A stretch of 9,527 bases of DNA from a virus. Lineage: Duplodnaviria > Heunggongvirae > Uroviricota > Caudoviricetes. Position 1 is the first letter of the stretch, and every line of letters starts with the position of its first letter. The DNA lies in IMG/VR virus record IMGVR_UViG_2609459864_000003, positions 1-9,527 of that record; one strand, 5' to 3'. The translations under genes and the position numbers were made by a program. Below are positions 1-9,527 of the stretch, piece by piece. The notes beneath the pieces were generated by a model. It saw only the letters and a program-made list of their open reading frames with translations. It did no database searches and was not told the origin of the DNA.

Positions 1-224
1 ATGGTCCCGGCATGTGAAGGCGGAAAACCTTCAACCAGCAGGGTGACGCTGTACTGACCATGCTCAACATCCATGCTGTAACGTCCGGCTTCATCCGGAT
101 TTTCAGAGGCCACCGTGTTCACCACCACCGTGCTGCTGGTTCGTCTGGCCTTCAGCACAATGGTGCAGTTCTGTACTGGTTTTCCTGTGCCATCTTTAAG
201 CACGCCAGAAATTTTTACTGTCAT
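1..224 (-). CDS. stf: side tail fibre protein Stf, N-terminal fragment (gene continues beyond window start)
   Basis: Minus-strand ATG at 222-224 opens a frame still open at base 1. Translation MTVKISGVLKDGTGKPVQNCTIVLKARRTSSTVVVNTVASENPDEAGRYSMDVEHGQYSVTLLVEGFPPSHAGT matches my recollection of the lambda Stf (orf-401) N-terminus (MAVKISGVLKDGTGKPVQNCTIQLKA...). It sits directly downstream of lom, as in lambda. Absent from the ORF track because there is no stop inside the window. Confidence 0.7.
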   Translation of the reverse strand, partial: MTVKISGVLKDGTGKPVQNCTIVLKARRTSSTVVVNTVASENPDEAGRYSMDVEHGQYSVTLLVEGFPPSHAGT

Positions 225-238
225 ACTTTTCCACCAAT

Positions 239-270
239 AAAAAAAGCCCGCAGCAGTGACGCCACGGGCT
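239..270 (-). terminator. intrinsic terminator downstream of lom
   Basis: Inverted repeat agcccg (245-250) / cgggct (265-270) with a 14-nt loop. On the minus strand the hairpin is followed by a U7 run (plus-strand A-run 239-245). Lies between the lom stop (376) and the stf start (224). Confidence 0.5.
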
Positions 271-375
271 TCAGGACAGTGTAACTTTACGTTTCCTCAA
301 ACGCAGTTCACCCCATAAGGTGGATGAACCTGCGTATCATAACAATATTTACAGAAGATAAATCGGCGTCTGTTG

Positions 376-975
376 TCAGAAACGGTATCCGATACCAACA
401 ATAAATGCATCCGTTCGCCAGTCGCCACTACCGGAACCTTCATAAGCAAGGTCAATGGTCACGGATTCGGTCGGGTTAAACTGCACGCCAGCCCCCCATG
501 CCAGAGACGTGTTGCTGTGGCGACCGTCATCACTTCCGGTCAGCACATCGTGCGTTTTCCCCTTGTTGTCAGTTACGCGGAGATAATCCCCGGAGAAAGT
601 CGACACACGGCTGTAAGCCATACCCGCCATCGCATACGCGCTGAACCATTCATTCACGCGCACAGACGGCCCCGCCATCACGCTGAACCAGCGGTTACGC
701 ACGGAATCTTCATGCCAGCGGGTATCGCTGTAGTGCGTTTTTTGCTCATCCTCAGCATTGGCATAACTGAAGGACGTAATCAGCCCCAGCGCGTCCGTAA
801 ACTCATAACGGTATTTCACGTTAATCCCGTTCAGATTATCGCTGCCGGGAGCGTTCGTACGGGCATGAAGATACCCCGCGCTCAGTGTGGACTGATGTTC
901 AGACGCCCATGCAGGCGCACCGGATACGGCCAGACAGATGGCTGCGGACAAAATGGCTGCACAAACTTTACGCAT
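376..975 (-). CDS. lom: Lom outer-membrane protein (Ail/Lom/PagC family)
   Basis: 199-aa ORF; MRKVCAAILSAAICLAVSGAPAWASEHQSTLSAGYLHA... is near-identical over its length to lambda Lom as I recall it. Has an N-terminal signal peptide and C-terminal aromatic residue typical of beta-barrel outer-membrane proteins. SD gagagg lies upstream of the ATG at 973-975. Lies immediately downstream of J, as in lambda. Confidence 0.93.
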   Translation of the reverse strand: MRKVCAAILSAAICLAVSGAPAWASEHQSTLSAGYLHARTNAPGSDNLNGINVKYRYEFTDALGLITSFSYANAEDEQKTHYSDTRWHEDSVRNRWFSVMAGPSVRVNEWFSAYAMAGMAYSRVSTFSGDYLRVTDNKGKTHDVLTGSDDGRHSNTSLAWGAGVQFNPTESVTIDLAYEGSGSGDWRTDAFIVGIGYRF

Positions 976-996
976 AATTACCTCTCGCTTTTCTGC

Positions 997-1023
997 AATA
1001 AAAAAGGCGCCATTTCTGGCGCC
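997..1023 (-). terminator. intrinsic terminator between J and lom
   Basis: Perfect 7-bp stem ggcgcca (1006-1012) / tggcgcc (1017-1023) with a 4-nt loop that reads GAAA on the minus strand, followed on the minus strand by UUUUUUAUU (plus A-run 997-1005). Starts about 20 nt after the J stop codon. Confidence 0.65.
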
Positions 1024-1042
1024 CGTATATGGGTTATAAAAT

Positions 1043-4000
1043 TCAGCTGATACTGATGCCTGCGGTGGCTTTCTTCATCACCACAACCAGCAAATCGCTG
1101 ATACTTGCTGTGGGATACCAGTTATTCACCAGCCATGCTGACACCGAAAACTCCAGTGTCATGTGACCGTGACCGGCAGGCATATCAATAACACCACTGT
1201 AAATCAGCGTATTATCCAGCGCGGTACGGTTATAAATTTCAGCACCGTTTTTCCGCACTATCAGACGGCATGAGGAGTAAATATCAGTATGCTCTTTCTC
1301 ATGTTTAGCGCCGCTGAATGCCACCGCCGGAATAACAATCTGCCGGTCAAACGGCTGATCGTCATAAACCCTGACGGTAATGGTCCCTGATGGCCACCGC
1401 TCCGGTGCACGGGAGTCCCGGGGGAAAGCTTTGCCCACTGTTTTAACGAGATCGCCTTCAATCTGGTTGGCGGACAGTTTTCCCAGAACCCGACAGTTTT
1501 CGTTAATCGTGACGTTGTTGAGCGTCCCGGAGTTCGCATTCACGTTACCGCTGATATCGGCATTTTTCGCCGTCAGCCGCCCGTCCGGTGTCAGGGAAAA
1601 TGCCGGAGGATTACCGCCGCTGGTAATGGTGGGAGCCGTCAGGTATTTCAGGAACACTTCGTTCATGAATATCTGATCGCCCTGACCAACAAACATCGGC
1701 TTTGTGTTGCCATTCGCAGGATTAATCATCGCAATCCGGTCAGCAGCCAGAAGCACCTGACTCTGCATACCTGCTGGCGTATTCTCAATACCGGCTCCGA
1801 TACCCGCAATATAAAGGCGTCCGTCCTTCATCTGCTGCAGTTTCACGGCCCACATGCTGTTCAGGTTATTATTTGTATCAACCTGAACTTTCTGTATCTG
1901 CTGGATTGCCGCACTCTGATTTTCCAGTTTTTTATTGACGGTCTGCGTGATTTCATTGCTGACATTCGTAATGGACGTCCTGATTTCAGCCAGATCAGGC
2001 GCAAGCTGACCGTTATCAATCTGTGTCCACAACTCCTGAGCCAGATGGGTTTTCCCTATCTCTCCTTTGAAAAAATCCAGATAGCCGGATGCATCATCAC
2101 TCGGCTGGCCAACAGCCTCCACAAATGCCGATTTGCCAACAGTATTCACACTGCGGATATAAAAATAATAATCATGGCCCGGTTTGATATTGATACTGGC
2201 AGCTATCCAGTACAGCGCCGAGCCAAGATAGCGGGCTGCGGTTTCAACCTGCCTGATATCCGCAATCCGCTTTTCCGAGAACCAGAACTCAAACTGTACC
2301 GTCGGGTCATAAACGGCAAGATGCGGCGTGGCGGGTATCTGAAAATAGCCCGGCGTCAGCTCAATCCGCGACGGTGCTGCCGGTGCGGCAATCCGGAAGG
2401 TGGTGGTGGCAGGTTCACCCTGCTGGCCATAGCTGTTTATCGCCCGCACCGTCAGGGTGTATTCCCCGAGCGGCAGGCCGCTGAAACGGTGCTCCGTGTC
2501 TGCGGTGATGGCGGTGGTCACCAGTCTGGCATCCGTTCCCTTACCACTGGTCAGGCGCAGACTGAAGCGCACACCCTTCACCACCCGCGGCGTGTCCCAT
2601 TTCGCCTGCGCCAGATACTGGCCGTCAGCTGCGCTCACCTCCACCGTCAGGTGCTGCACTGCCGGTGGGATGACGCTGTTCAGGGAACCTGACTGCGGCT
2701 CAAAGCGGGCACCGTTATCCACGATGGCTTCTTTTTCCGGTACGTGCTGCACCGCCGTGATGGCAAAGGTGCCGTCCGTGTTTTCCCGGATGGAGACACA
2801 GCGGAACAGGCGACGGCGCAGTGACGGCAGGGAGAGTCCCCACACCCCGTATGTCTCCACACCATCAGGCAGGGTACTGACCTGTATCCGGTCCGGCGCG
2901 GGGTGTTCGGTGATGTCCACACTCACCGGCTTACCGCTGCCGTTAATCAGGTTCACCGTGGCGGCACCGGTCTCCGGAAGTGTCACTTCACGGTCCAGCG
3001 TCAGGGTGCGGGTGGCAGCATCAATGGACAGGACACGTCCGCCGGTCAGAGTCCCGGCATAGTCGTTATCACAGATTTCAATGATGTCACCGGGTGTGTG
3101 CCGCAGCCCCTGAGACCCGAGCGTGAAATCCACCGTCTGCGTTTCCAGCAGTTCGGTCTTTATCACCCACAGTCCGGCACGGTGGGCCTGACCGCGGCTG
3201 GTACAGCCGAACGCGTCCATCTTCAGCAGGTTGCGTCCGTAGCGCAGTATGGCTTCCGGGTCTTCCACCAGTTCCGTGGAGGTCTGCCAGCCGTTCTGCG
3301 GGTCGGTGTAATTCACCTCCACCGCCGTGTGCCGGTCCTTCAGGGCACTGAAGCTGTAGCGGAATCCCACGCCGTTATCATCCACCACCACATCGCTGTT
3401 GGTGTACGGCCACACCACATCCGACGGGCGGTCCTGAACGAACGTCAGCGTCTGACCGTTCCATACCGGCATACAGCGCATCGCAGAGCAGAAATCACTG
3501 AGAACGTCCCACGCCTTACGCTGTTGTGCCAGGTACGCATTAAAGGTCATCCGCGGCTCTGTCCCCCCGAAACCATCCGGGACCGTCTGGTCGCAGTACT
3601 GCCCGATGGCATACAGCGCCCACTTGTCCACATCCGCCGCCCCCAGACGTTTTCCCATGCCGTAGCGCGGGTGAGTCAGCATGTCCCACAGGCACCAGGC
3701 CGGGTTGTTGCTGTATGCCGGTTTCAGACTGCCGTCCCAGATACCACTGTACGTGCGTTTTTCCGGGTCATAGTTTGACGGCACCTGGATGATGCGACCG
3801 CGGATATGGTAGTTCACCGTCATCTGCTGGCCGCCGAACTGCTCCGCATCCACCTGCAGCCCCACAATGGCCGTGTTCGGGTAATCGAGGCTGAGGGCTT
3901 TCTTAATCTCGTATCCGTGTCTGCGGTAGCACTGAATTAGCCACTCGGCCTGTTCTTCAGTGCATGGGGGATGCTGGAACCAGTCAGATTTGAAAGTGCG

Positions 4001-4072
4001 GGAACGCCGCCCGTGCCTGCTGGCAGGGGCGGCAGAGTTATCCGAATTGTAAAATTTGGTATCGTGCGCCAT
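1043..4072 (-). CDS. J: tail-tip host specificity protein J, N-terminally truncated fragment
   Basis: The track ORF 1043..4201 aligns by eye with lambda J from about ORF residue 107 ([20 protein letters not shown]... versus lambda KQCYPNTALVGVQVDSEQFGSQQ...) through the C-terminus, including the conserved [13 protein letters not shown] and [30 protein letters not shown] blocks. The first ~106 residues do not resemble J. The hok terminator lies at 4141-4170, so I place the plausible start at the internal ATG 4070-4072 ([10 protein letters not shown]...). Roughly 200 N-terminal residues of a full-length J and all upstream tail genes are absent. Confidence 0.85.
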
Positions 4073-4140
4073 CTGTTTTCTCTGCTGGCGCAGCAGGTGC
4101 CAGTTGTTCAGGCTGACGGATGGATTGTAAACCAGAACGA

Positions 4141-4170
4141 CCAGAAAAAACAAAACCCGCCGAAGCGGGT
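4141..4170 (-). terminator. hok mRNA intrinsic terminator
   Basis: Stem aacccgc (4153-4159) / gcgggtt (4164-4170) with a 4-nt loop, followed on the minus strand by UUUUGUUUUUUCUGG (plus 4141-4152). Lies about 70 nt downstream of the hok stop. Confidence 0.6.
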
Positions 4171-4239
4171 TAAGTGCGGGTGCGTTGAGGATGCCTGACA
4201 CATCAGCGGTGGCGAGGGATTTCTCCCCCGCCGGGTCTC

Positions 4240-4395
4240 TTACTCCTCAGGTTCGTAAGCTGTGAAGACAGCGACCTCCGTCTGGCCGGTTCGGATTCGT
4301 ACCTCGCAGAGGTCTTTCCTCGTTACCAGTGCCGTCACTATGACGGTTAAACAGATGACGATCAGGGCGATTAACATCGCCTTTTGCTGCTTCAT
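4240..4395 (-). CDS. hok: Hok/Gef family type I toxin (51 aa; HokD/RelF-like or HokC/Gef-like)
   Basis: My own translation of the minus strand gives [51 protein letters not shown]: a single transmembrane helix plus the conserved RKDLCE and VAVF(T/M)AYE motifs of Hok/Gef proteins. SD ggaga lies upstream of the ATG at 4393-4395. Below the 60-aa cutoff of the ORF track. Confidence 0.93.
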
Positions 4396-4451
4396 AGCCT
4401 GCTTCTCCTTGACCTTTCGGTCCGTAAGAGGCTAATCTCTATGTGTCGCAT
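4392..4451 (-). CDS. mok: mok-like leader ORF (19 codons) translationally coupled to hok
   Basis: Minus-strand ATG at 4449-4451 opens [19 protein letters not shown]; its stop TGA overlaps the hok ATG (AUGA). The position matches the mok reading frame of plasmid R1 hok/sok, though it is much shorter here. Confidence 0.4.
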   Translation of the reverse strand: MRHIEISLLRTERSRRSRL

Positions 4452-4510
4452 AGATATGGCCTCAGATTAATGTTAAGCGTCTTGCAGGACGCGTAATGTT
4501 AACTGGGGCT
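4440..4510 (+). ncRNA. sok: putative Sok-like antisense RNA; ends approximate
   Basis: Plus-strand promoter-like hexamers TTGACC (4409-4414) and TAATCT (4433-4438) with an 18-bp spacer, pointing opposite to hok. The transcript would be antisense to the mok start region of the hok leader, as in known hok/sok loci. A hairpin gcgtct-tgca-ggacgc sits at 4478-4493. Exact 5' and 3' ends cannot be fixed from sequence. Confidence 0.35.
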
Positions 4511-4570
4511 TTTCTCTATCTGCCTTTTGGTGTTCATGCCTGAGACAGATAGCCTCAAGCACCCGCAGTC

Positions 4571-4599
4571 ATTCTACTTAACTAAGATTTCCCCGCAAA
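4571..4599 (-). promoter_or_regulatory. putative hok promoter
   Basis: Read on the minus strand: -35 TTTGCG (plus 4594-4599), 17-nt spacer, -10 TAGAAT (plus 4571-4576). It sits just upstream of the gcttgaggct 5' motif that aligns with the 5' end of R1 hok mRNA as I recall it. Confidence 0.4.
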
Positions 4600-4653
4600 C
4601 CGTTTTTGTCCGGCACAGTAAATATCCAACTAAACCAATGGCGTTCGCTGTAT

Positions 4654-4833
4654 TTACCGCCAGTATTCAATGCACATGACCGCCATGAACACCCCTAAAA
4701 AAAGGGCATTTATATATCCAAATATTAATATCAAAACATCAACTTTTTCCATATACCTTGCTGTGAAGATGATGGGCATACATGATACGAACAACCAGAA
4801 CGCAACAAACAAAAACTGCAATGCGTTTTTCAT
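4654..4833 (-). CDS. hypothetical small membrane protein (59 aa, two predicted hydrophobic helices)
   Basis: Internal ATG (4831-4833) of track ORF 4654..4872 is preceded by a strong SD aggagg. Product MKNALQFLFVAFWLFVSCMPIIFTARYMEKVDVLILIFGYINALFLGVFMAVMCIEYWR is dominated by two hydrophobic segments. Lies in a markedly AT-rich stretch (about 4680-4980). Confidence 0.5.
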   Translation of the reverse strand: MKNALQFLFVAFWLFVSCMPIIFTARYMEKVDVLILIFGYINALFLGVFMAVMCIEYWR

Positions 4834-5062
4834 TATTCCTCCTACAATCAATGTGCAATTACATTTAAACACACCTCAATTTGGCCGGACATATAAATAT
4901 CTAAACCAGAAAAAATCACTTACATAGCGTTACAAACTCTTTAGTCTAAATATTCATCGTAAAACATTCCCCATACTTATCAGCCCGTTCTGCGCCAGGT
5001 AGCTCATTGCCTTATCTGGGAATCTGTAATCAGGTTTCCGGATGCTGGTGGATTTTCGCGTT

Positions 5063-5320
5063 TTAGTTGTTCATAAAAGTGCACAGCTTTAACCAGTTCT
5101 TCTGATGTAACCGGGACTGGCGGGGCAGTGAATAAGGCCTGAATTTCATAGTTCGGCCTGTCGTTACAATCCTCTTTTTTCGGTACATATTTCCAGTCAC
5201 CAGACCACTACTTCCCCTGAAAGTCCGTAACGCCTTTTTTTTCACGTAGCGATATCGCCATGCCACTGTTTTTGCTTGCCCCGCCGTTTCATGCCCTTCC
5301 TGATAATTAACCTCGCTCAT
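5063..5320 (-). CDS. hypothetical ORF with Ea22-like start (MSEVNYQ...), possibly a frameshifted pseudogene
   Basis: ATG 5318-5320 overlaps the stop of the upstream 58-aa ORF (ATGA). The first codons agcgaggttaattatcag resemble the ea22-like start at 8185 (agcgaaattaattaccag). After homopolymer runs (A8 on the coding strand = plus T-run 5227-5234; A6 = plus 5171-5176) the product becomes an implausible K/R-rich string, while another frame carries a more protein-like open stretch ending at 5004. Confidence 0.3.
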   Translation of the reverse strand: MSEVNYQEGHETAGQAKTVAWRYRYVKKKALRTFRGSSGLVTGNMYRKKRIVTTGRTMKFRPYSLPRQSRLHQKNWLKLCTFMNN

Positions 5321-5493
5321 TCATCGCCCCACTCATCACAATATGCTTCGACCGGAGTTTTTCCTGCTTCATAATCATCACGCCATGCTTCAGCATCAGC
5401 AGCACTGCCACCACGTAACTCTGCATAGTCCATTAACAGTTCATGCCATGCTTCAAAACTGACGTTGTATTTAGTTGAACCAAAATCAGCCAT
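5317..5493 (-). CDS. hypothetical small acidic protein (58 aa)
   Basis: Not in the track (below 60 aa). ATG 5491-5493 overlaps the stop of the upstream ORF (ATGGCTGA). Translation MADFGSTKYNVSFEAWHELLMDYAELRGGSAADAEAWRDDYEAGKTPVEAYCDEWGDE. The stop overlaps the next start. Confidence 0.5.
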   Translation of the reverse strand: MADFGSTKYNVSFEAWHELLMDYAELRGGSAADAEAWRDDYEAGKTPVEAYCDEWGDE

Positions 5494-5668
5494 TTTGCTC
5501 TTCCTCTTCGTCTTTTATTTCGTGATATGAGTAATTGCAGTAGTTAAAGAAAATATCTTTTGCTTCGTCATGTATTTCATCAGGCGTCGCATCATCATCC
5601 ACTTCGAATTCATCCTCGAAATCTCCACCGGCTATTCCCGTTTCAATAATTATTTTAAACTTTCGCAT
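5486..5668 (-). CDS. hypothetical small highly acidic protein (60 aa)
   Basis: Track ORF; MRKFKIIIETGIAGGDFEDEFEVDDDATPDEIHDEAKDIFFNYCNYSYHEIKDEEEEQNG, about 40 percent D/E. An SD AGGAGG is present, but it is separated from the ATG by a GC hairpin (see the regulatory feature at 5676-5697). Confidence 0.55.
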   Translation of the reverse strand: MRKFKIIIETGIAGGDFEDEFEVDDDATPDEIHDEAKDIFFNYCNYSYHEIKDEEEEQNG

Positions 5669-5675
5669 TTAACTA

Positions 5676-5697
5676 CCGCCCTTTCGGGCGGCCTCCT
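5676..5697 (-). promoter_or_regulatory. SD-hairpin-AUG translation initiation structure
   Basis: Minus strand reads AGGAGG (plus 5692-5697), then hairpin ccgccc-GAAA-gggcgg (plus 5676-5691), then uaguuaa, then AUG (plus 5666-5668). Linear SD-to-AUG distance is 23 nt; folding the GNRA hairpin would bring them into normal spacing. Confidence 0.4.
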
Positions 5698-5761
5698 GAT
5701 GTTCTGATGGTGCAGAAATCCCTCCGGTTAAGGATTAAATTTTTAACAGAGCTAAATTTAA

Positions 5762-6118
5762 TTATTCAGTTCTGGATTTTGTCGCCCTGCGTATCCGCGC
5801 TTTCGCGTTACGCTCAATCTGAATTAGCTTTTCTATATTTTTTCGCCTTTCCCGCTCCTCCTGGCGCAAGTGCCTTACATCATCTGCCAGTCTGGTTTCT
5901 CTTTTCGCCACAGAGAGCATCCAGTCAAATGGTTCCACAACTGCACCGCAGATTTTACAGCGGACCTGACGCTCTTTTTCGTCAACCCGGACAGAGGCGT
6001 GATGACAATATGGTCTTTCCGATGGCTCATAAAGAAAATTAACCTGATTACGAGGGTCATCCTCTTTTACCGGAAATAAAACGATATTGCTTAACTCATC
6101 CTCTGGTTTTATTTCCAT
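5762..6118 (-). CDS. hypothetical protein with putative zinc-ribbon (C-HH ... C-x2-C) and basic coiled-coil C-terminus (118 aa)
   Basis: Internal ATG 6116-6118 of track ORF 5762..6175 has SD aaggagagg; the track start at 6175 is a GTG inside the upstream scar. Product MEIKPEDELSNIVLFPVKEDD...PYCHHASVRVDEKERQVRCKICGAVV... followed by an R/K/E-rich tail. Confidence 0.6.
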   Translation of the reverse strand: MEIKPEDELSNIVLFPVKEDDPRNQVNFLYEPSERPYCHHASVRVDEKERQVRCKICGAVVEPFDWMLSVAKRETRLADDVRHLRQEERERRKNIEKLIQIERNAKARIRRATKSRTE

Positions 6119-6239
6119 GCTCCTCTCCTTTGATGCGAATGCCAGCGGTAATTGAAGCCTGATAGCTAATTTCACTCACAGTACCGCCTCCTGAAAATTT
6201 AATGAACAATTCAATACGTTCTTTGGTAATAGTGGTCAT
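6096..6239 (-). pseudogene. deletion scar: chimeric 47-codon ORF built from gene-start and gene-end fragments
   Basis: ATG 6237-6239 with SD aaggag. Product MTTITKERIELFIKFSGGG-TVSEISYQASITAGIRIKGE-EHGNKTRG. Its first codons match the start of the 135-aa gene at 6922 (MITITKG...). An internal aggaggcggtact-GTG-agtgaaattagctatcag copies the RBS and start of the ea22-like gene at 8185, fused directly to a copy of the ea22-like 3' end (AGIRIKGE). Confidence 0.4.
6123..6148. repeat. 26-bp gene-boundary repeat, copy 1 (ctctcctttgatgcgaatgccagcgg)
   Basis: Exact 26-nt identity with 7438-7463. Here it lies inside the scar, read in a different frame relative to the next start codon because of a 1-nt indel just outside the repeat. 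Confidence 0.8.
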
Positions 6240-6249
6240 GTGTTACTCC

Positions 6250-6513
6250 TTAACCCGCAGTGCTTTCAACTGATGAGGGGAACAAAATCTTTTCATCAAA
6301 CCCTGCATTCATATCATGAACAGCAACACACCAATCCATCGACGAACGATTATCAAGAGCCTCCATGATTTCATCCATGCGGCGCAGGTCATACAGGTAA
6401 ATGCTTTTATCGCCAATGGTGTAAAAACCAATTTTTTTCGGTGATGGGCAGCGATCAAGAACGTCCTGTAATTCGTTCAACCATGCCCGTTCTTTTTTTG
6501 TTAAAGTTGCCAT
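6250..6513 (-). CDS. hypothetical protein (87 aa)
   Basis: Internal ATG 6511-6513 of track ORF 6250..6573, preceded by SD aaggagag within the conserved junction gccatatcactctccttt (6509-6526). Product MATLTKKERAWLNELQDVLDRCPSPKKIGFYTIGDKSIYLYDLRRMDEIMEALDNRSSMDWCVAVHDMNAGFDEKILFPSSVESTAG. Confidence 0.6.
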   Translation of the reverse strand: MATLTKKERAWLNELQDVLDRCPSPKKIGFYTIGDKSIYLYDLRRMDEIMEALDNRSSMDWCVAVHDMNAGFDEKILFPSSVESTAG

Positions 6514-6514
6514 A

Positions 6515-6922
6515 TCACTCTCCTTTCCCATGAAGCATAGCGGCGCGGCAGGCGTTCCATATTTCGGCAGCAATATCGCGCTCGCTATCGGTTAATTTGT
6601 ACGTGGAAACATAGCCAGAGAGCATTTCTACGTTTTCCGGAGTTGCTTCTTCCGGCACTATCGGCGCTGGAGGGGCGGCAAATAGATATCCGCCAAAGTC
6701 AGGAAGCTCTCCAATGGCCTGTACGAACTTTTGTTTGCCTACGTCAACTCCTAATGGGTAATGAGCTATAATCTTTGCCACCGGCTCTGCTTCCAGCGAT
6801 ACCAGTGCAATTCGTGCCAGTTCTTCCGCTTCTTCTGCTGGCAGTACAACGTTGCTACCCGGTCCGTATGTTTCGCGCCACTGCTTGATTGTCAGCAGTC
6901 GCCCTTTGGTAATAGTGATCAT
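6515..6922 (-). CDS. hypothetical protein (135 aa)
   Basis: Track ORF; the start ATG overlaps the stop of the upstream nuclease gene (ATGA at 6919-6922); SD aaggaa. No motif I can recognise. Confidence 0.7.
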   Translation of the reverse strand: MITITKGRLLTIKQWRETYGPGSNVVLPAEEAEELARIALVSLEAEPVAKIIAHYPLGVDVGKQKFVQAIGELPDFGGYLFAAPPAPIVPEEATPENVEMLSGYVSTYKLTDSERDIAAEIWNACRAAMLHGKGE

Positions 6923-7434
6923 GCCGCGTTTCCTTCTTTCTTATTAACAATCACACCGTCATATATTTCATTAAGGTGCCCTCTCAACTCCATGCGCCTT
7001 AATGCAGATAACATGTAATCGCATTCAACCTGCTTATTCCCAGTAAATGGCTTATCGTCAGGATTACCCCAACAGCAATTACCCCTGGGCCATCCATGTA
7101 CTTTCCGTACTCTTCCGTTAACAACGTGAAGTAATCCCCAGCCGGGAGGTAAATCCTCAACTGAAATAATTTCCGGCTCACTAATAAAGAATCGCCAGTC
7201 GCCCATGCCAAGTGAGGGATTTTTACGGAAACGCTTTTTTCTATCTGCCAACAAGTCAGCACGAGAACACTTCGCCTCTATCAGGCATGATGCTGAATTT
7301 CTGAATCCCATAGCATCTGGCTGTTCTCCGGTACTGGTTACAGCAACAAAGCGGTCATGAAAGCAAACCTTGAACCCGTTGCGCTTAAGGAACTTGTACG
7401 CAATCTGACAGAGTTCGCGGTGTGTTAACGCCAT
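6919..7434 (-). CDS. putative PD-(D/E)XK-type nuclease (171 aa; VRR-NUC / MmcB-like motif arrangement)
   Basis: Track ORF with SD aaggagag. The product contains ...VAVTSTGEQPDAMGF(x9)CLIEAKCSRADL...: an acidic residue, a PD dipeptide and an E-x-K triad at the spacing typical of restriction-endonuclease-fold nucleases. Family assignment is from motif only. Confidence 0.7.
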   Translation of the reverse strand: MALTHRELCQIAYKFLKRNGFKVCFHDRFVAVTSTGEQPDAMGFRNSASCLIEAKCSRADLLADRKKRFRKNPSLGMGDWRFFISEPEIISVEDLPPGWGLLHVVNGRVRKVHGWPRGNCCWGNPDDKPFTGNKQVECDYMLSALRRMELRGHLNEIYDGVIVNKKEGNAA

Positions 7435-7435
7435 A

Positions 7436-8185
7436 TCACTCTCCTTTGATGCGAATGCCAGCGGCGCGGATTGCAGCGATGACTTCAGAAACTTTGTATG
7501 CCATTACCGTTTGGTAATCATCGTGAAAATCTGTTCGATGAAGCATGCTGCTACGTTCCGGGAGCGATATTTCCCGAGCATCCAGTTCCTTAACGCGTTC
7601 CTCCAGTTCGTAGACCCTGCATTGTTCTCTATCATCAATCAGATATAACCCAAGACATTCGCTTTCTACCCAACCGCCAAAATCATGATCGTAACGCTCA
7701 CATGAAAACTCACCGTCACCGTCCTTTGTTGGAATGGTGTAACTATCTAATGGGCCACCATATGTCGGCACATTCCCCAATGTTGGATGCTCAATCCACA
7801 TGAAAAATGCACGTCCGGTTATTGGGCAAATATCTGGCCGCCATTGGTTACGAACAGCCTTGGTTTCGGATAATTCTTCAGCGTGTTGTTTTACTTCCTC
7901 AAGCTCAACTCTCAGCTTCCCTACCGTTAGCGCAATATCCTCGTTCTCCTGGTCGCGGCGTTTGATGTATTGCTGGTTCCTTTCCCGTTCATCCAGTAGT
8001 GCCAGCACGGTTTCTGGTCCGGTCAGAAATTTGAAGGCATTGAGCGCATCAATATCCACACCGTAATCTTTAAGTTCCTGTTCACTTAACAAATCATCAT
8101 CAGTTGGCAACATTAACAGGCGTTCCATTGCTGGAATTGCACGTTCTGCTGCCTCACGCAGTGCCTGGTAATTAATTTCGCTCAC
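7436..8185 (-). CDS. Ead/Ea22-like family protein (249 aa)
   Basis: GTG start 8183-8185 preceded by a strong SD aaaggagg; the track's longer ORF to 8368 has no better start. N-terminus VSEINYQALREAAERAIPAMERLL...ETVLALLDERERNQQYI... matches the pattern I recall for Ead/Ea22-like prophage proteins. Central coiled-coil, cysteine-rich C-terminal half. Confidence 0.7.
   Translation of the reverse strand: MSEINYQALREAAERAIPAMERLLMLPTDDDLLSEQELKDYGVDIDALNAFKFLTGPETVLALLDERERNQQYIKRRDQENEDIALTVGKLRVELEEVKQHAEELSETKAVRNQWRPDICPITGRAFFMWIEHPTLGNVPTYGGPLDSYTIPTKDGDGEFSCERYDHDFGGWVESECLGLYLIDDREQCRVYELEERVKELDAREISLPERSSMLHRTDFHDDYQTVMAYKVSEVIAAIRAAGIRIKGE
7438..7463. repeat. 26-bp gene-boundary repeat, copy 2
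   Basis: Identical to 6123-6148. Here it encodes the C-terminus AGIRIKGE of the ea22-like protein plus the SD of the downstream nuclease gene. The overlapping 18-mer gccatatcactctccttt (7430-7447) recurs at 6509-6526. Confidence 0.8.
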
Positions 8186-8352
8186 TGGTTGCCTCCTTTG
8201 CGAAGCTCTGCGGCTAAATACTCCAACGCCATTATGTGGCGTGTTCCCCAACCAGGACGGTACGTTCACCGCGATGACGTATACCAAAAGCAAAACGTTT
8301 AAAACCGAAAATGGTGCCCGTCGCTGGCTGGAAAGAAACTCAGGTGAGTGAT

Positions 8353-8481
8353 ATGGATTTCGACACAATCATGGAAAAGGCTTACGAAGAATACTTCGAT
8401 GGTCTTGCCGAAGGCGAAGAAACTCTCAGCTTCAACGAATTTAAACAGGCGCTTTCCAGTTCGGCAAAATCTAACGGCTGA
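8353..8481 (+). CDS. ydfB: YdfB-like small protein (42 aa) of the dicB operon
   Basis: ATG 8353-8355 with SD aggtga. Product MDFDTIMEKAYEEYFDGLAEGEETLSFNEFKQALSSSAKSNG. Size and position (two genes upstream of DicF and dicB) match ydfB of the E. coli K-12 Qin prophage. Not in the track (below 60 aa); the overlapping track ORFs 8348..8557 (+) and 8299..8496 (-) have implausible composition. Confidence 0.6.
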   Translation: MDFDTIMEKAYEEYFDGLAEGEETLSFNEFKQALSSSAKSNG

Positions 8482-8510
8482 TAAGCGAAACAGCACCGCG
8501 AGGAATCAGT

Positions 8511-8729
8511 ATGCAGAAACGAGAACCCGTCATCATCGCGCCAGACTATACCGATGATGAACTTTATGAGTGGATGCGCCAGAAAATTAATGCAGTGCAG
8601 GATCTGAAATGGGCCAATGAAGCCAGGACTAAGCAGGCTGAAAATCTGTCCGCTCTGGAGCAGGATATCACCAGGCTGGAAAAAGCAGCGGCATTAAGCA
8701 TTGCCAGAATGGTTACATACCCGCGTTAA
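8511..8729 (+). CDS. ydfC: YdfC-like protein (72 aa) of the dicB operon
   Basis: Track ORF with SD gaggaa. 72 aa, the size of K-12 ydfC; it lies immediately upstream of the DicF precursor region. Confidence 0.7.
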   Translation: MQKREPVIIAPDYTDDELYEWMRQKINAVQDLKWANEARTKQAENLSALEQDITRLEKAAALSIARMVTYPR

Positions 8730-9067
8730 TAGCTAACCAACGAAGCTAAGGTTGGTAATTAAGGAGTTCTCCACGGGTCAGGTGGAGTGCGTGCGCCGGA
8801 CACGGGTGAACATCCGGCACTGACAGTTTACTGAAAGGATATGTCCCTGAAAAGTCAGGGCATAAAGCGAAAGCGCACGGCGAAATTGGTCTCTCTGTAC
8901 GGTGTCGTTAAATTTAGTTCGACCGTGCGCTTCCGGTTGTGGCACTCCGCGAAATGGCGCGGCGGTAAGTATGGCGGGGGTATTCCTTCCTCCGTTGAGG
9001 ACACCGGGTTGTCAGGTTGACCATACGCTTAAGTGACAACTCCGCTGCAACGCCCTCTGTTATCAAT

Positions 9068-9120
9068 TTTCTGGTGACGTTTGGCGGTATCAGTTTTACT
9101 CCGTGACTGCTCTGCCGCCC
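9068..9120 (+). ncRNA. dicF: DicF small regulatory RNA (53 nt; ftsZ-targeting sRNA of Qin-type prophages)
   Basis: tttctggtgacgtttggcggtatcagttttactccgtgactgctctgccgccc matches the DicF sequence as I remember it, followed by a T5 run (9121-9125). It is embedded in an ORF-free, hairpin-rich region between ydfC and dicB, exactly as in K-12. Confidence 0.8.
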
Positions 9121-9294
9121 TTTTTAAAGTGAATTTTGTGATGTGGTGAATGCGGCTGAGCGCACGCGGAACAGTTAAAACCAAAAACAGTGTTATGGGT
9201 GGATTCTCTGTATCCGGCGTTAATTGTTAACTGGTTAACGTCACCTGGAGGCACCAGGCACCGCATCACAAAATTCATTGTTGAGGACGCGATA

Positions 9295-9483
9295 ATGGAA
9301 ACGTTATTACCAAACGTTAATACGTCTGAAGGTTGTTTTGATATTGGTGTTCTGCTCAGTAACCGGGAGTTTACGGAAGATGCCATTAAGATGAGAAAAT
9401 ATGAACCTTATCTTCTCAATGATAATTCCATACTTTCCAGAATTGCCCTTCTTGAACTTGGTATTATCGGAGAACAGCAGTGA
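9295..9483 (+). CDS. dicB: DicB-like cell division inhibitor (62 aa)
   Basis: Internal ATG 9295-9297 of track ORF 9190..9483, SD gagga. Product METLLPNVNTSEGCFDIGVLLSNREFTEDAIKMRKYEPYLLNDNSILSRIALLELGIIGEQQ. The 62-aa length and N-terminus match my recollection of K-12 DicB; the C-terminal half appears divergent. Lies downstream of DicF. Confidence 0.8.
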   Translation: METLLPNVNTSEGCFDIGVLLSNREFTEDAIKMRKYEPYLLNDNSILSRIALLELGIIGEQQ

Positions 9484-9527
9484 CTTCAGCATTTGCACTG
9501 GTGATGACCGTTTTTCTTATAACGGGT
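9480..9527 (+). CDS. ydfD: YdfD-like protein, N-terminal fragment (continues beyond window end)
   Basis: GTG 9480-9482 overlaps the dicB stop (GTGA). The frame is open to the window end and encodes a hydrophobic N-terminus VTSAFALVMTVFLITG. Position after dicB matches ydfD of K-12. Confidence 0.4.
   Translation, partial: MTSAFALVMTVFLITG

Follow-up and report, generated by a model that had tools for sequence, protein, structure and literature searches.

A hok/sok-type toxin-antitoxin locus of the lambdoid-prophage kind with a complete set of R1-like elements and a shortened mok frame

The stretch of tailed-phage DNA analysed here (IMG/VR record IMGVR_UViG_2609459864_000003, positions 1 to 9,527; the window, 9,527 nucleotides in full) codes on its minus strand, at 4600..4145, for a complete hok/sok-type type I toxin-antitoxin locus, as identified by sequence reading, homology, and folding. 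The best explanation, to which we give a probability of about 0.9, is a complete hok/sok-type cassette of the kind carried by lambdoid prophages, with a mechanism assigned by homology with plasmid R1. Alignment shows homology along the whole locus to R1 hok/sok, K-12-type hokC, and hokW/sokW of phage 933W, with the regulatory elements at aligned positions. An initial annotation of this DNA had proposed that the hok, mok, and sok architecture of R1 is kept, and the alignment with these three systems bears this out; its observation is confirmed and its interpretation supported. The same alignment with R1, K-12-type hokC, and 933W shows that the leader is homologous to theirs, so an upstream region unrelated to known hok leaders is not the case. 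The in silico basis consists of this homology, the complete element set, and three alternative pairings predicted for the mRNA 5' end, while processing, translational coupling, Sok expression, and toxicity would be as described in work on R1 and hokW. This is an already known and ordinary kind of element, and E. coli prophages commonly carry it in full length. The regulatory logic of hokD/hokW-type loci has been worked out since the 1990s.

Organization of the cassette

The cassette is organized 5' to 3' on the minus strand with a −10 hexamer, a predicted start at G4564, a 169-nt leader, a 51-codon open reading frame (ORF), and a 3' untranslated region (UTR). The R1 element set is complete, with the metastable hairpin, the tac/ucb alternative, a sequestered mok SD, the 3' hairpin, the terminator, and a putative hairpin RNA on the plus strand. 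The features and the basis for placing each are as follows.

4571..4598, minus strand: hok promoter, with −10 TAGAAT (4576..4571) and a weak −35-like TTGCGG (4598..4593) across a 16-nt spacer; placed by sequence and alignment
4553..4564, minus strand: tac (translational activator element), GGGUGCUUGAGG, at the hok mRNA 5' end; folds and conservation
4536..4546, minus strand: 3' arm of the metastable 5' hairpin, which would capture tac in the nascent RNA; fold, with the role taken from R1 (PMC9841398)
4505..4511, minus strand: ucb (anti-SD), AAGCCCC, predicted partner of the mok SD region in the full-length RNA and of tac after 3' trimming; folds
4466..4503, minus strand: long leader stem-loop, the complement of which forms the Sok hairpin; Rfam match and folds
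4392..4463, minus strand: mok, with SD GAGG (4463..4460), ATG at 4451, 19 codons, and stop TGA at 4394..4392; sequence
4409..4404, minus strand: hok SD, AGGAGA; sequence
4395..4240, minus strand: hok toxin gene, 51 aa plus stop; Pfam PF01848 and protein accession
4211..4232, minus strand: GC-rich 3' stem-loop, GGCGGGGGAgaaaUCCCUCGCC; present in every fold and aligned with the R1 hairpin GGCGGGCgcagGCCCGCC
4178..4190, minus strand: fbi (fold-back inhibitory element), CCUCAACGCACCC; folds and homologues
4145..4171, minus strand: intrinsic terminator, stem AACCCGC-uucg-GCGGGUU (4171..4154) and then a U run; terminator scan
4409..4438, plus strand: putative sok promoter, TTGACC-18 nt-TAATCT (−10 at 4433-4438); sequence and homologous position
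4445..4513, plus strand: putative Sok antisense RNA of ∼69 nt; extent mapped from the annotated 71-nt sokW of 933W

The Hok ORF, which had been called from the sequence alone, is real: it matches Pfam HOK_GEF (PF01848) at 4395..4240 with 82.9 bits against a cutoff of 22, and the full profile is covered. The toxin had also been described as HokD/RelF-like, and its protein accession, WP_000813254.1, taken from a strain with 100% identity over a 601-nt region around the locus, is indeed that of HokD/RelF of K-12 W3110. The gene call recorded for the source draft-assembly contig JNRT01000062.1, which is the complete window, has no hok gene, a gap in the annotation that the present locus would fill. 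A 1,052-aa ORF at 1043..4201 overlaps the hok 3' end; its gene start was rejected, with the first ∼43 codons corresponding to read-through across the hok terminator.

A generic sigma-70 promoter scan of the window called neither the hok nor the sok promoter, and both were therefore placed by alignment with R1, 933W, and hokC, with promoter activity predicted from these relatives. The hok −10 hexamer aligns with TAGAAT of 933W, TATAAT of hokC, and TATGAT of R1, and the mRNA probably starts with the G at 4564, which corresponds to position 1 of the Rfam leader model. A divergent promoter for Sok, with a start near 4445, had been proposed, and the promoter-like TTGACC-18-TAATCT at 4409-4438 agrees with that placement; it aligns with TTGCCT-17-TAACCT in 933W and TTGCGC-17-TATCCT in R1 and was missed by the scanner because its −10 matches at only three of six positions. 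The sokW promoter has been validated by mutation (PMC8621323).

The leader matches Rfam family RF01794 end to end (model positions 1-157 of 157), scoring 106.7 bits where the gathering score is 59. In the window, as in 36 other loci, the match is to the hok strand, from tac to the hok AUG; here it occupies 4564..4393. Because the family is named 'sok antitoxin' and the match is on the minus strand, it could be read as placing the antitoxin RNA on the minus strand at 4564..4393 rather than on the plus strand. This is most improbable, given that the match runs from tac to the hok AUG on the hok strand in the window and in the 36 other loci, that the annotated sokW of 933W is opposite in strand to hokW, and that the plus-strand segment folds as a hairpin followed by a U tail. 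The RF01794 model thus describes the hok mRNA leader, and a match to it is no proof of a Sok RNA. In the plus-strand candidate a 5' tail of ∼13 nt, with complementarity to the region of the mok start, precedes a long hairpin and UUUU, and the segment 4445-4513 folds at −29.3 kcal/mol (z = −5.0).

Relatives and prophage context

E. coli FDAARGOS_401 carries the 601-nt region surrounding the locus with 100% identity, and at least 80% of this region is found in 2,373 of 5,426 complete E. coli genomes, with up to nine matching places per genome. It is also matched in 79 phage records, including 933W, where mokW, hokW, and sokW are annotated. Complete hokD/hokW-type loci are among the commonest small cassettes of E. 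coli prophages, and finding one carries little weight as a discovery.

The closest tested relative is hokW/mokW/sokW of 933W and Sakai prophage Sp5, with 91% nucleotide identity over 440 nt. The tac and fbi sequences of 933W are identical to those of the window, and the leader architecture, the sok position, and the lambdoid prophage setting are the same. HokW differs at four C-terminal residues (92% identity), mokW is a canonical 70 codons in frame with hok whereas the window mok has 19 codons, the segment holding the mok start and the Sok 5'-tail target differs, and 933W is without the hairpin terminator that comes after fbi in the window; that terminator is common to K-12 hokD. The hokW-sokW pair is a working type I toxin-antitoxin system, both RNAs of which are seen on northern blots, and it aids release of the Sp5 phage after induction (PMC8621323).

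The hokD locus of K-12 (relF, in the Qin prophage) codes for a protein with the same accession and is 98.9% identical in DNA over a shared 264 nt, a stretch that begins 14 nt before the ATG and takes in the 3' hairpin, fbi, and the terminator. Upstream of the ATG only the 14 nt AGGAGAAGCAGGCT are shared, and relE/relBE sequence replaces everything before them, so that K-12 hokD is without promoter, tac, ucb, mok start, Sok target, and sok. The statement in the initial annotation that K-12 hokD lacks the regulatory elements is therefore correct, with relE lying before AGGAGAAGCAGGCT, and the suggestion that the present locus is an intact form of hokD also holds: the window has the unrearranged form, commonplace as that form is, and shows what K-12 hokD lost. 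With the full-length form common, and annotated and studied as hokW/sokW, an "intact hokD" is no discovery.

Like K-12 hokD, the locus resides in a dicF/dicB-type prophage. DicF, at 9069-9120, and a DicB gene are both in the window, making the prophage Qin-like; Ead/Ea22 and DUF7167 genes are also present, and the same gene neighbourhood occurs in other E. coli prophages, in a Qin/lambdoid early-region context. At 3881/3882, a tail-tip J gene without its N terminus is joined in frame to the gene usually found next after hokD. This junction was found in none of the complete E. coli genomes, and it reflects either a large deletion in the prophage or a chimeric assembly.

In R1 hok/sok (parB), tac, the metastable hairpin, ucb, the Sok target stem, the mok SD and start, the hok SD, hok, the 3' hairpin, and fbi are in the same order as in the window, and the tac/fbi logic is shared through compensated sequences (GGCGCUU/AAGCGCC in R1 and GGGUGCUU/AA-C-GCACCC in the window). 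However, the R1 toxin is only 43% identical to the window Hok, the R1 system is plasmid-borne and acts in post-segregational killing, and its mok has 71 codons in frame with hok, in a leader of different length. The hokC/mokC (gef) locus has 82% protein identity, an identical tac, and a homologous leader (119.8 bits with the Rfam model), but it is a core-chromosome locus with an in-frame mokC, a shorter Sok-target stem, and a different 3' UTR and predicted fbi.

Pairing of the mRNA ends and its alternatives

A fold-back pairing between the 5' and 3' ends of the hok mRNA had been proposed from an inverted repeat, with the 3' element at plus-strand 4177-4190 and the 5' motif at plus-strand 4552-4565. 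The first position is exact, with CGGGTGCGTTGAGG on the plus strand at 4177-4190; the second motif is present, but the range given for it included one base too many at its low end, with CGGGTGCTTGAGG on the minus strand at 4565..4553. Nucleotides 1 to 12 of the mRNA, the tac sequence GGGUGCUUGAGG, form 12 bp with CCUCAA-C-GCACCC (nt 375-387), with one bulged C. The predicted 419-nt RNA (4564..4146) has a minimum free energy (MFE) fold of −169.3 kcal/mol that contains tac/fbi (z = −7.3, with none of 100 shuffles as stable), and the tac/fbi pair probabilities are 0.97 to 1.0 in the full-length ensemble. The duplex of tac with the 3' UTR has an energy of −21.5 kcal/mol, against −14.5 ± 2.2 kcal/mol for dinucleotide-shuffled 3' UTRs, with 12 of 2,000 shuffles reaching the real value.

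Comparison among loci is the stronger evidence for tac/fbi, exceeding that from folding. The tac sequence is invariant in the 79 hokD-type loci that have a leader, and variation in fbi among 84 hokD-type loci affects only the bulged base (C or T). Because tac and fbi did not vary among 80 IMG/VR loci sharing an identical Hok, hok loci of other species were collected by a genome-wide scan, their leaders were located with the Rfam model, and 36 loci were compared. In most of these the best partner of the 5' end changes together with tac, with compensatory changes across genera, as in the following examples.

Escherichia: tac GGGUGC, fbi GCACCC
Photorhabdus and Pantoea: tac GGGCGC, fbi GCGCCC (U4:A to C4:G)
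Photorhabdus: tac ...GAGAC, fbi CUCUC... (G12:C to A12:U)
Mixta: tac GGGUGCUCUGGAUC, fbi GGAUCCAUGAGCACCC (UUGAGG:CCUCAA to UCUGGAUC:GAUCCAUGAG)
R1-type: tac GGCGCUU, fbi AAGCGCC

These explicit compensatory pairs were used because G·U pairs let GGGUGC bind fbi elements of the GCGCCC type, so that a comparison of cognate with noncognate tac/3' UTR duplex energies, in which a locus's own tac class is the best binder in only 10 of 36 loci, is no clean test of covariation.

The repeat could in principle be a chance match or part of the terminator, without regulatory meaning. It is just 12 bp long and bulged, the 12 shuffled 3' UTRs equal it, and short complementarities are many in GC-rich prophage DNA, several having been found here. 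Nonetheless, a fortuitous repeat is very hard to reconcile with fbi pairing better with tac than any other site in the mRNA does, with its pairing in the MFE fold at a probability of at least 0.97, or with its location 48 nt past the hok stop, where the homologues have it at 44 to 56 nt in most of the 36 loci and covarying with tac; it is also separate from the terminator hairpin at 4171..4154. The fold-back pairing of the two ends, as initially proposed, is thus upheld by the folding, the shuffles, and the compensatory changes across genera.

The R1 model requires three alternative partners of tac (PMC9841398), and the other two are also predicted here. Nucleotides 1 to 30 fold into a hairpin in which tac is captured by 4546..4536 (−16.9 kcal/mol), as expected for the metastable 5' hairpin. 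In 5' fragments of 62 and 110 nt a tac/ucb stem forms, pairing GGG-U-GCUU with AAGCCCC with U4 bulged, and the mok SD is free. In the full-length fold ucb has a different partner, with GCC (nt 56-58) paired to GGC (nt 104-106), and the mok SD bases G102, G104, and G105 are paired with a probability of ∼1. When tac/ucb is enforced, the penalty is 11.4 kcal/mol for the full-length RNA, as against 1.5 kcal/mol for an RNA that ends at the 3' hairpin. Left unconstrained, the trimmed RNA retains the metastable hairpin in its MFE fold instead of the published tac/ucb state, by a margin of only 1.5 kcal/mol; with tac/ucb imposed, CCUC at nt 134-137, the position of dcb, becomes the partner of the mok SD. 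By analogy with R1 (PMC9841398), processing of the mRNA into its translatable form is expected to end at the GC-rich hairpin at 4232..4211, which would protect that form against exonucleases.

The mok frame, a proposed mechanism, and its implications

The single departure from the R1-type architecture is mok, the shortened leader frame. A short mok frame overlapping the hok start had been described, and a frame is present at 4451-4392, but it is not a canonical mok, having 19 codons and being out of frame with hok; the canonical mok of ∼70 codons that extends across hok is not present in the window. The mok UGA overlaps the hok AUG as AUGA, and the frame crosses the hok SD. The mok ATG is 56 nt from the hok ATG in the window and in 11 identical IMG/VR leaders, whereas 70 of 71 other hokD-type IMG/VR leaders, 933W, and R1 have it at 57 nt, in the hok frame (70-71 codons). 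The short-mok allele is frequent: 4380-4480 (101 nt) is matched at an identity of at least 99% by 827 E. coli records. It is found with an intact Hok in 11 IMG/VR loci, which is weak evidence because this set was selected for an identical Hok. A 245-nt query for hok integrity among carriers of the short-mok allele was uninformative, with partial matches falling in the same identity bands.

With mok short and out of frame here and in frame elsewhere, coupling to hok could be weakened or lost, and the main rival explanation takes this further: the locus would look complete yet be silent, the 1-nt net shortening of mok uncoupling hok so that no Hok is made and the cassette is a decaying passenger of a defective prophage. 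We regard this as unlikely, at something like one chance in five. The mok frame is displaced compared with that of all other alleles examined, the J-gene fusion suggests that the prophage around the locus has undergone deletion, and another copy with the same mok allele (L167) has a decayed hok 3' half. Chromosomal hokA, hokB, and hokC, tested earlier, gave no post-segregational killing, according to a passage in a preprint (bioRxiv 10.1101/2025.08.07.668861) citing Pedersen & Gerdes, so that the chromosomal loci covered there were inactive in killing assays. In R1, mok stops upstream of the hok start abolish toxicity, although mok translation is needed only up to the hok initiation region, and stops beyond the hok start are harmless (PMC9841398). 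The stop in the window is not upstream but overlaps the hok start as AUGA, and ribosomes translating the short frame would cross the whole hok SD, which is enough in R1 (PMC9841398). The frequency of the allele, the intact Hok in the 11 IMG/VR short-mok loci (to the limited extent that a set so selected can tell), and the intact state of all remaining elements also argue against a silent cassette. As R1 needs mok translation only as far as the hok initiation region, coupling is expected to be kept in the short-mok allele, probably by termination-reinitiation.

For the preferred reading, an operative cassette of the R1 type, a mechanism can be proposed. A weak promoter would give rise to a minus-strand mRNA of ∼420 nt, in which tac is held in the local 5' hairpin while the RNA is nascent. 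In the finished RNA the tac/fbi pairing would lock the mok SD into base pairs, permitting neither translation nor Sok binding. Slow 3' trimming to the GC-rich hairpin would remove fbi, whereupon tac would pair with ucb and the mok SD would be freed; ribosomes on the short mok would then cross the hok SD and stop at the AUGA overlap, and hok would be translated into a small inner-membrane toxin. The plus-strand Sok would prevent this by pairing with the trimmed mRNA around the mok start. If Sok transcription were to stop, for example upon loss of the element or upon induction, the stable mRNA pool would be translated and the cell killed or lysed.

The only hypervariable segment of the otherwise conserved hokD-type leaders is at mRNA nt ∼107-128, between the mok SD and mok codon 5. 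This segment is the target of the putative Sok 5' tail, and co-resident copies in one genome have different versions of it. The hypervariable target and the differing co-resident copies together suggest that prophage hok/sok loci diversify Sok recognition, possibly avoiding cross-protection between prophages in one cell.

Together these features allow a joint reading, which we advance tentatively and rate at a little under even odds: that a common short-mok allele shows ribosome passage to be sufficient, and that prophage cassettes diversify their Sok recognition sequence. The frequent allele and the hypervariable Sok-target segment are a modest side-lead. If the short-mok allele is active, it would be a natural demonstration that only ribosome passage through the hok initiation region matters and that coupling can run by termination-reinitiation.

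Prophage context and the fused J gene

The window is the complete 9,527-bp draft contig JNRT01000062.1 (assembly GCA_000704825.1), and the features that flank the hok locus are as follows.

9069-9120, plus strand: DicF sRNA (76.7 bits)
about 9295-9483, plus strand: DicB gene
4654-4872, minus strand: small, strongly hydrophobic ORF (72 aa, or 59 aa as recorded in the gene call)
1043-4072, minus strand: fusion ORF, with its junction at 3881/3882

DicF and DicB together mark the region as the immunity/early region of a Qin-type prophage. The hydrophobic ORF, for which Pfam gives no match, lies close to the hok promoter, on its upstream side. The hok position itself is empty in the contig's recorded gene call, a typical omission of small genes. 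In the fusion ORF, an N-terminally truncated phage tail-tip J gene is joined in frame to approximately the first 63 codons of a small gene, the usual follower of hokD. This junction is absent from all 5,426 complete Escherichia coli genomes; it reflects either a large deletion within the prophage or chimeric assembly of a short draft contig.

A short, out-of-frame mok

Two features of the hok leader are of note.

4392-4451, minus strand: mok, 19 codons, in a frame different from that of hok
4437-4458, minus strand: segment bounded by the mok SD and codon 5 of mok; target of the 5' tail of Sok, the putative antisense RNA

The UGA of this short mok overlaps the hok AUG, as AUGA, whereas in every other examined hokD-type leader with a mok start, mok is ∼70 codons long and in the hok frame, as it also is in the Shiga-toxin phage 933W, the chromosomal hokC locus, and plasmid R1. 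The short mok allele is present in 827 E. coli records at ≥99% identity. The same short mok is found in the leader of L167, one of the hok loci gathered for comparison (E. coli 2020N21-110-15, NZ_CM125669.1, 854115-854715); the 3' half of its hok is decayed, with a 41-aa product, and no fbi (the 3' fold-back element) is present in this copy, which thereby exemplifies a degraded cassette.

Rfam RF01794, although titled "sok antitoxin," matches the hok-sense strand from tac, the 5'-end element of the hok mRNA, to the hok AUG (4393-4564, minus strand, in the window, and at 36 other loci), and thus describes the hok mRNA leader and not the antisense RNA.

Distribution of hok loci and variation in the Sok target

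Six of the gathered loci (L096, L106, L113, and L148-L150), recovered as genome contig matches, are identical or near-identical to enterobacterial ones, and lie on contigs labeled Veillonella, Acinetobacter, Xanthomonas, Streptomyces, Ferruginibacter, and Oscillibacter; the likeliest explanation is contamination of those assemblies by enterobacterial or plasmid DNA.

Among the hokD-type leaders (loci L006-L085 and L088-L101), the segment from the mok SD to codon 5 is the sole hypervariable part, the rest being conserved. Copies resident in one genome carry differing versions of the Sok-tail target, as in Shigella flexneri SFBU1023 (L091, L093, and L101). The hypervariable target segment, together with these unlike versions within a single genome, suggests that Sok specificity is diversifying.
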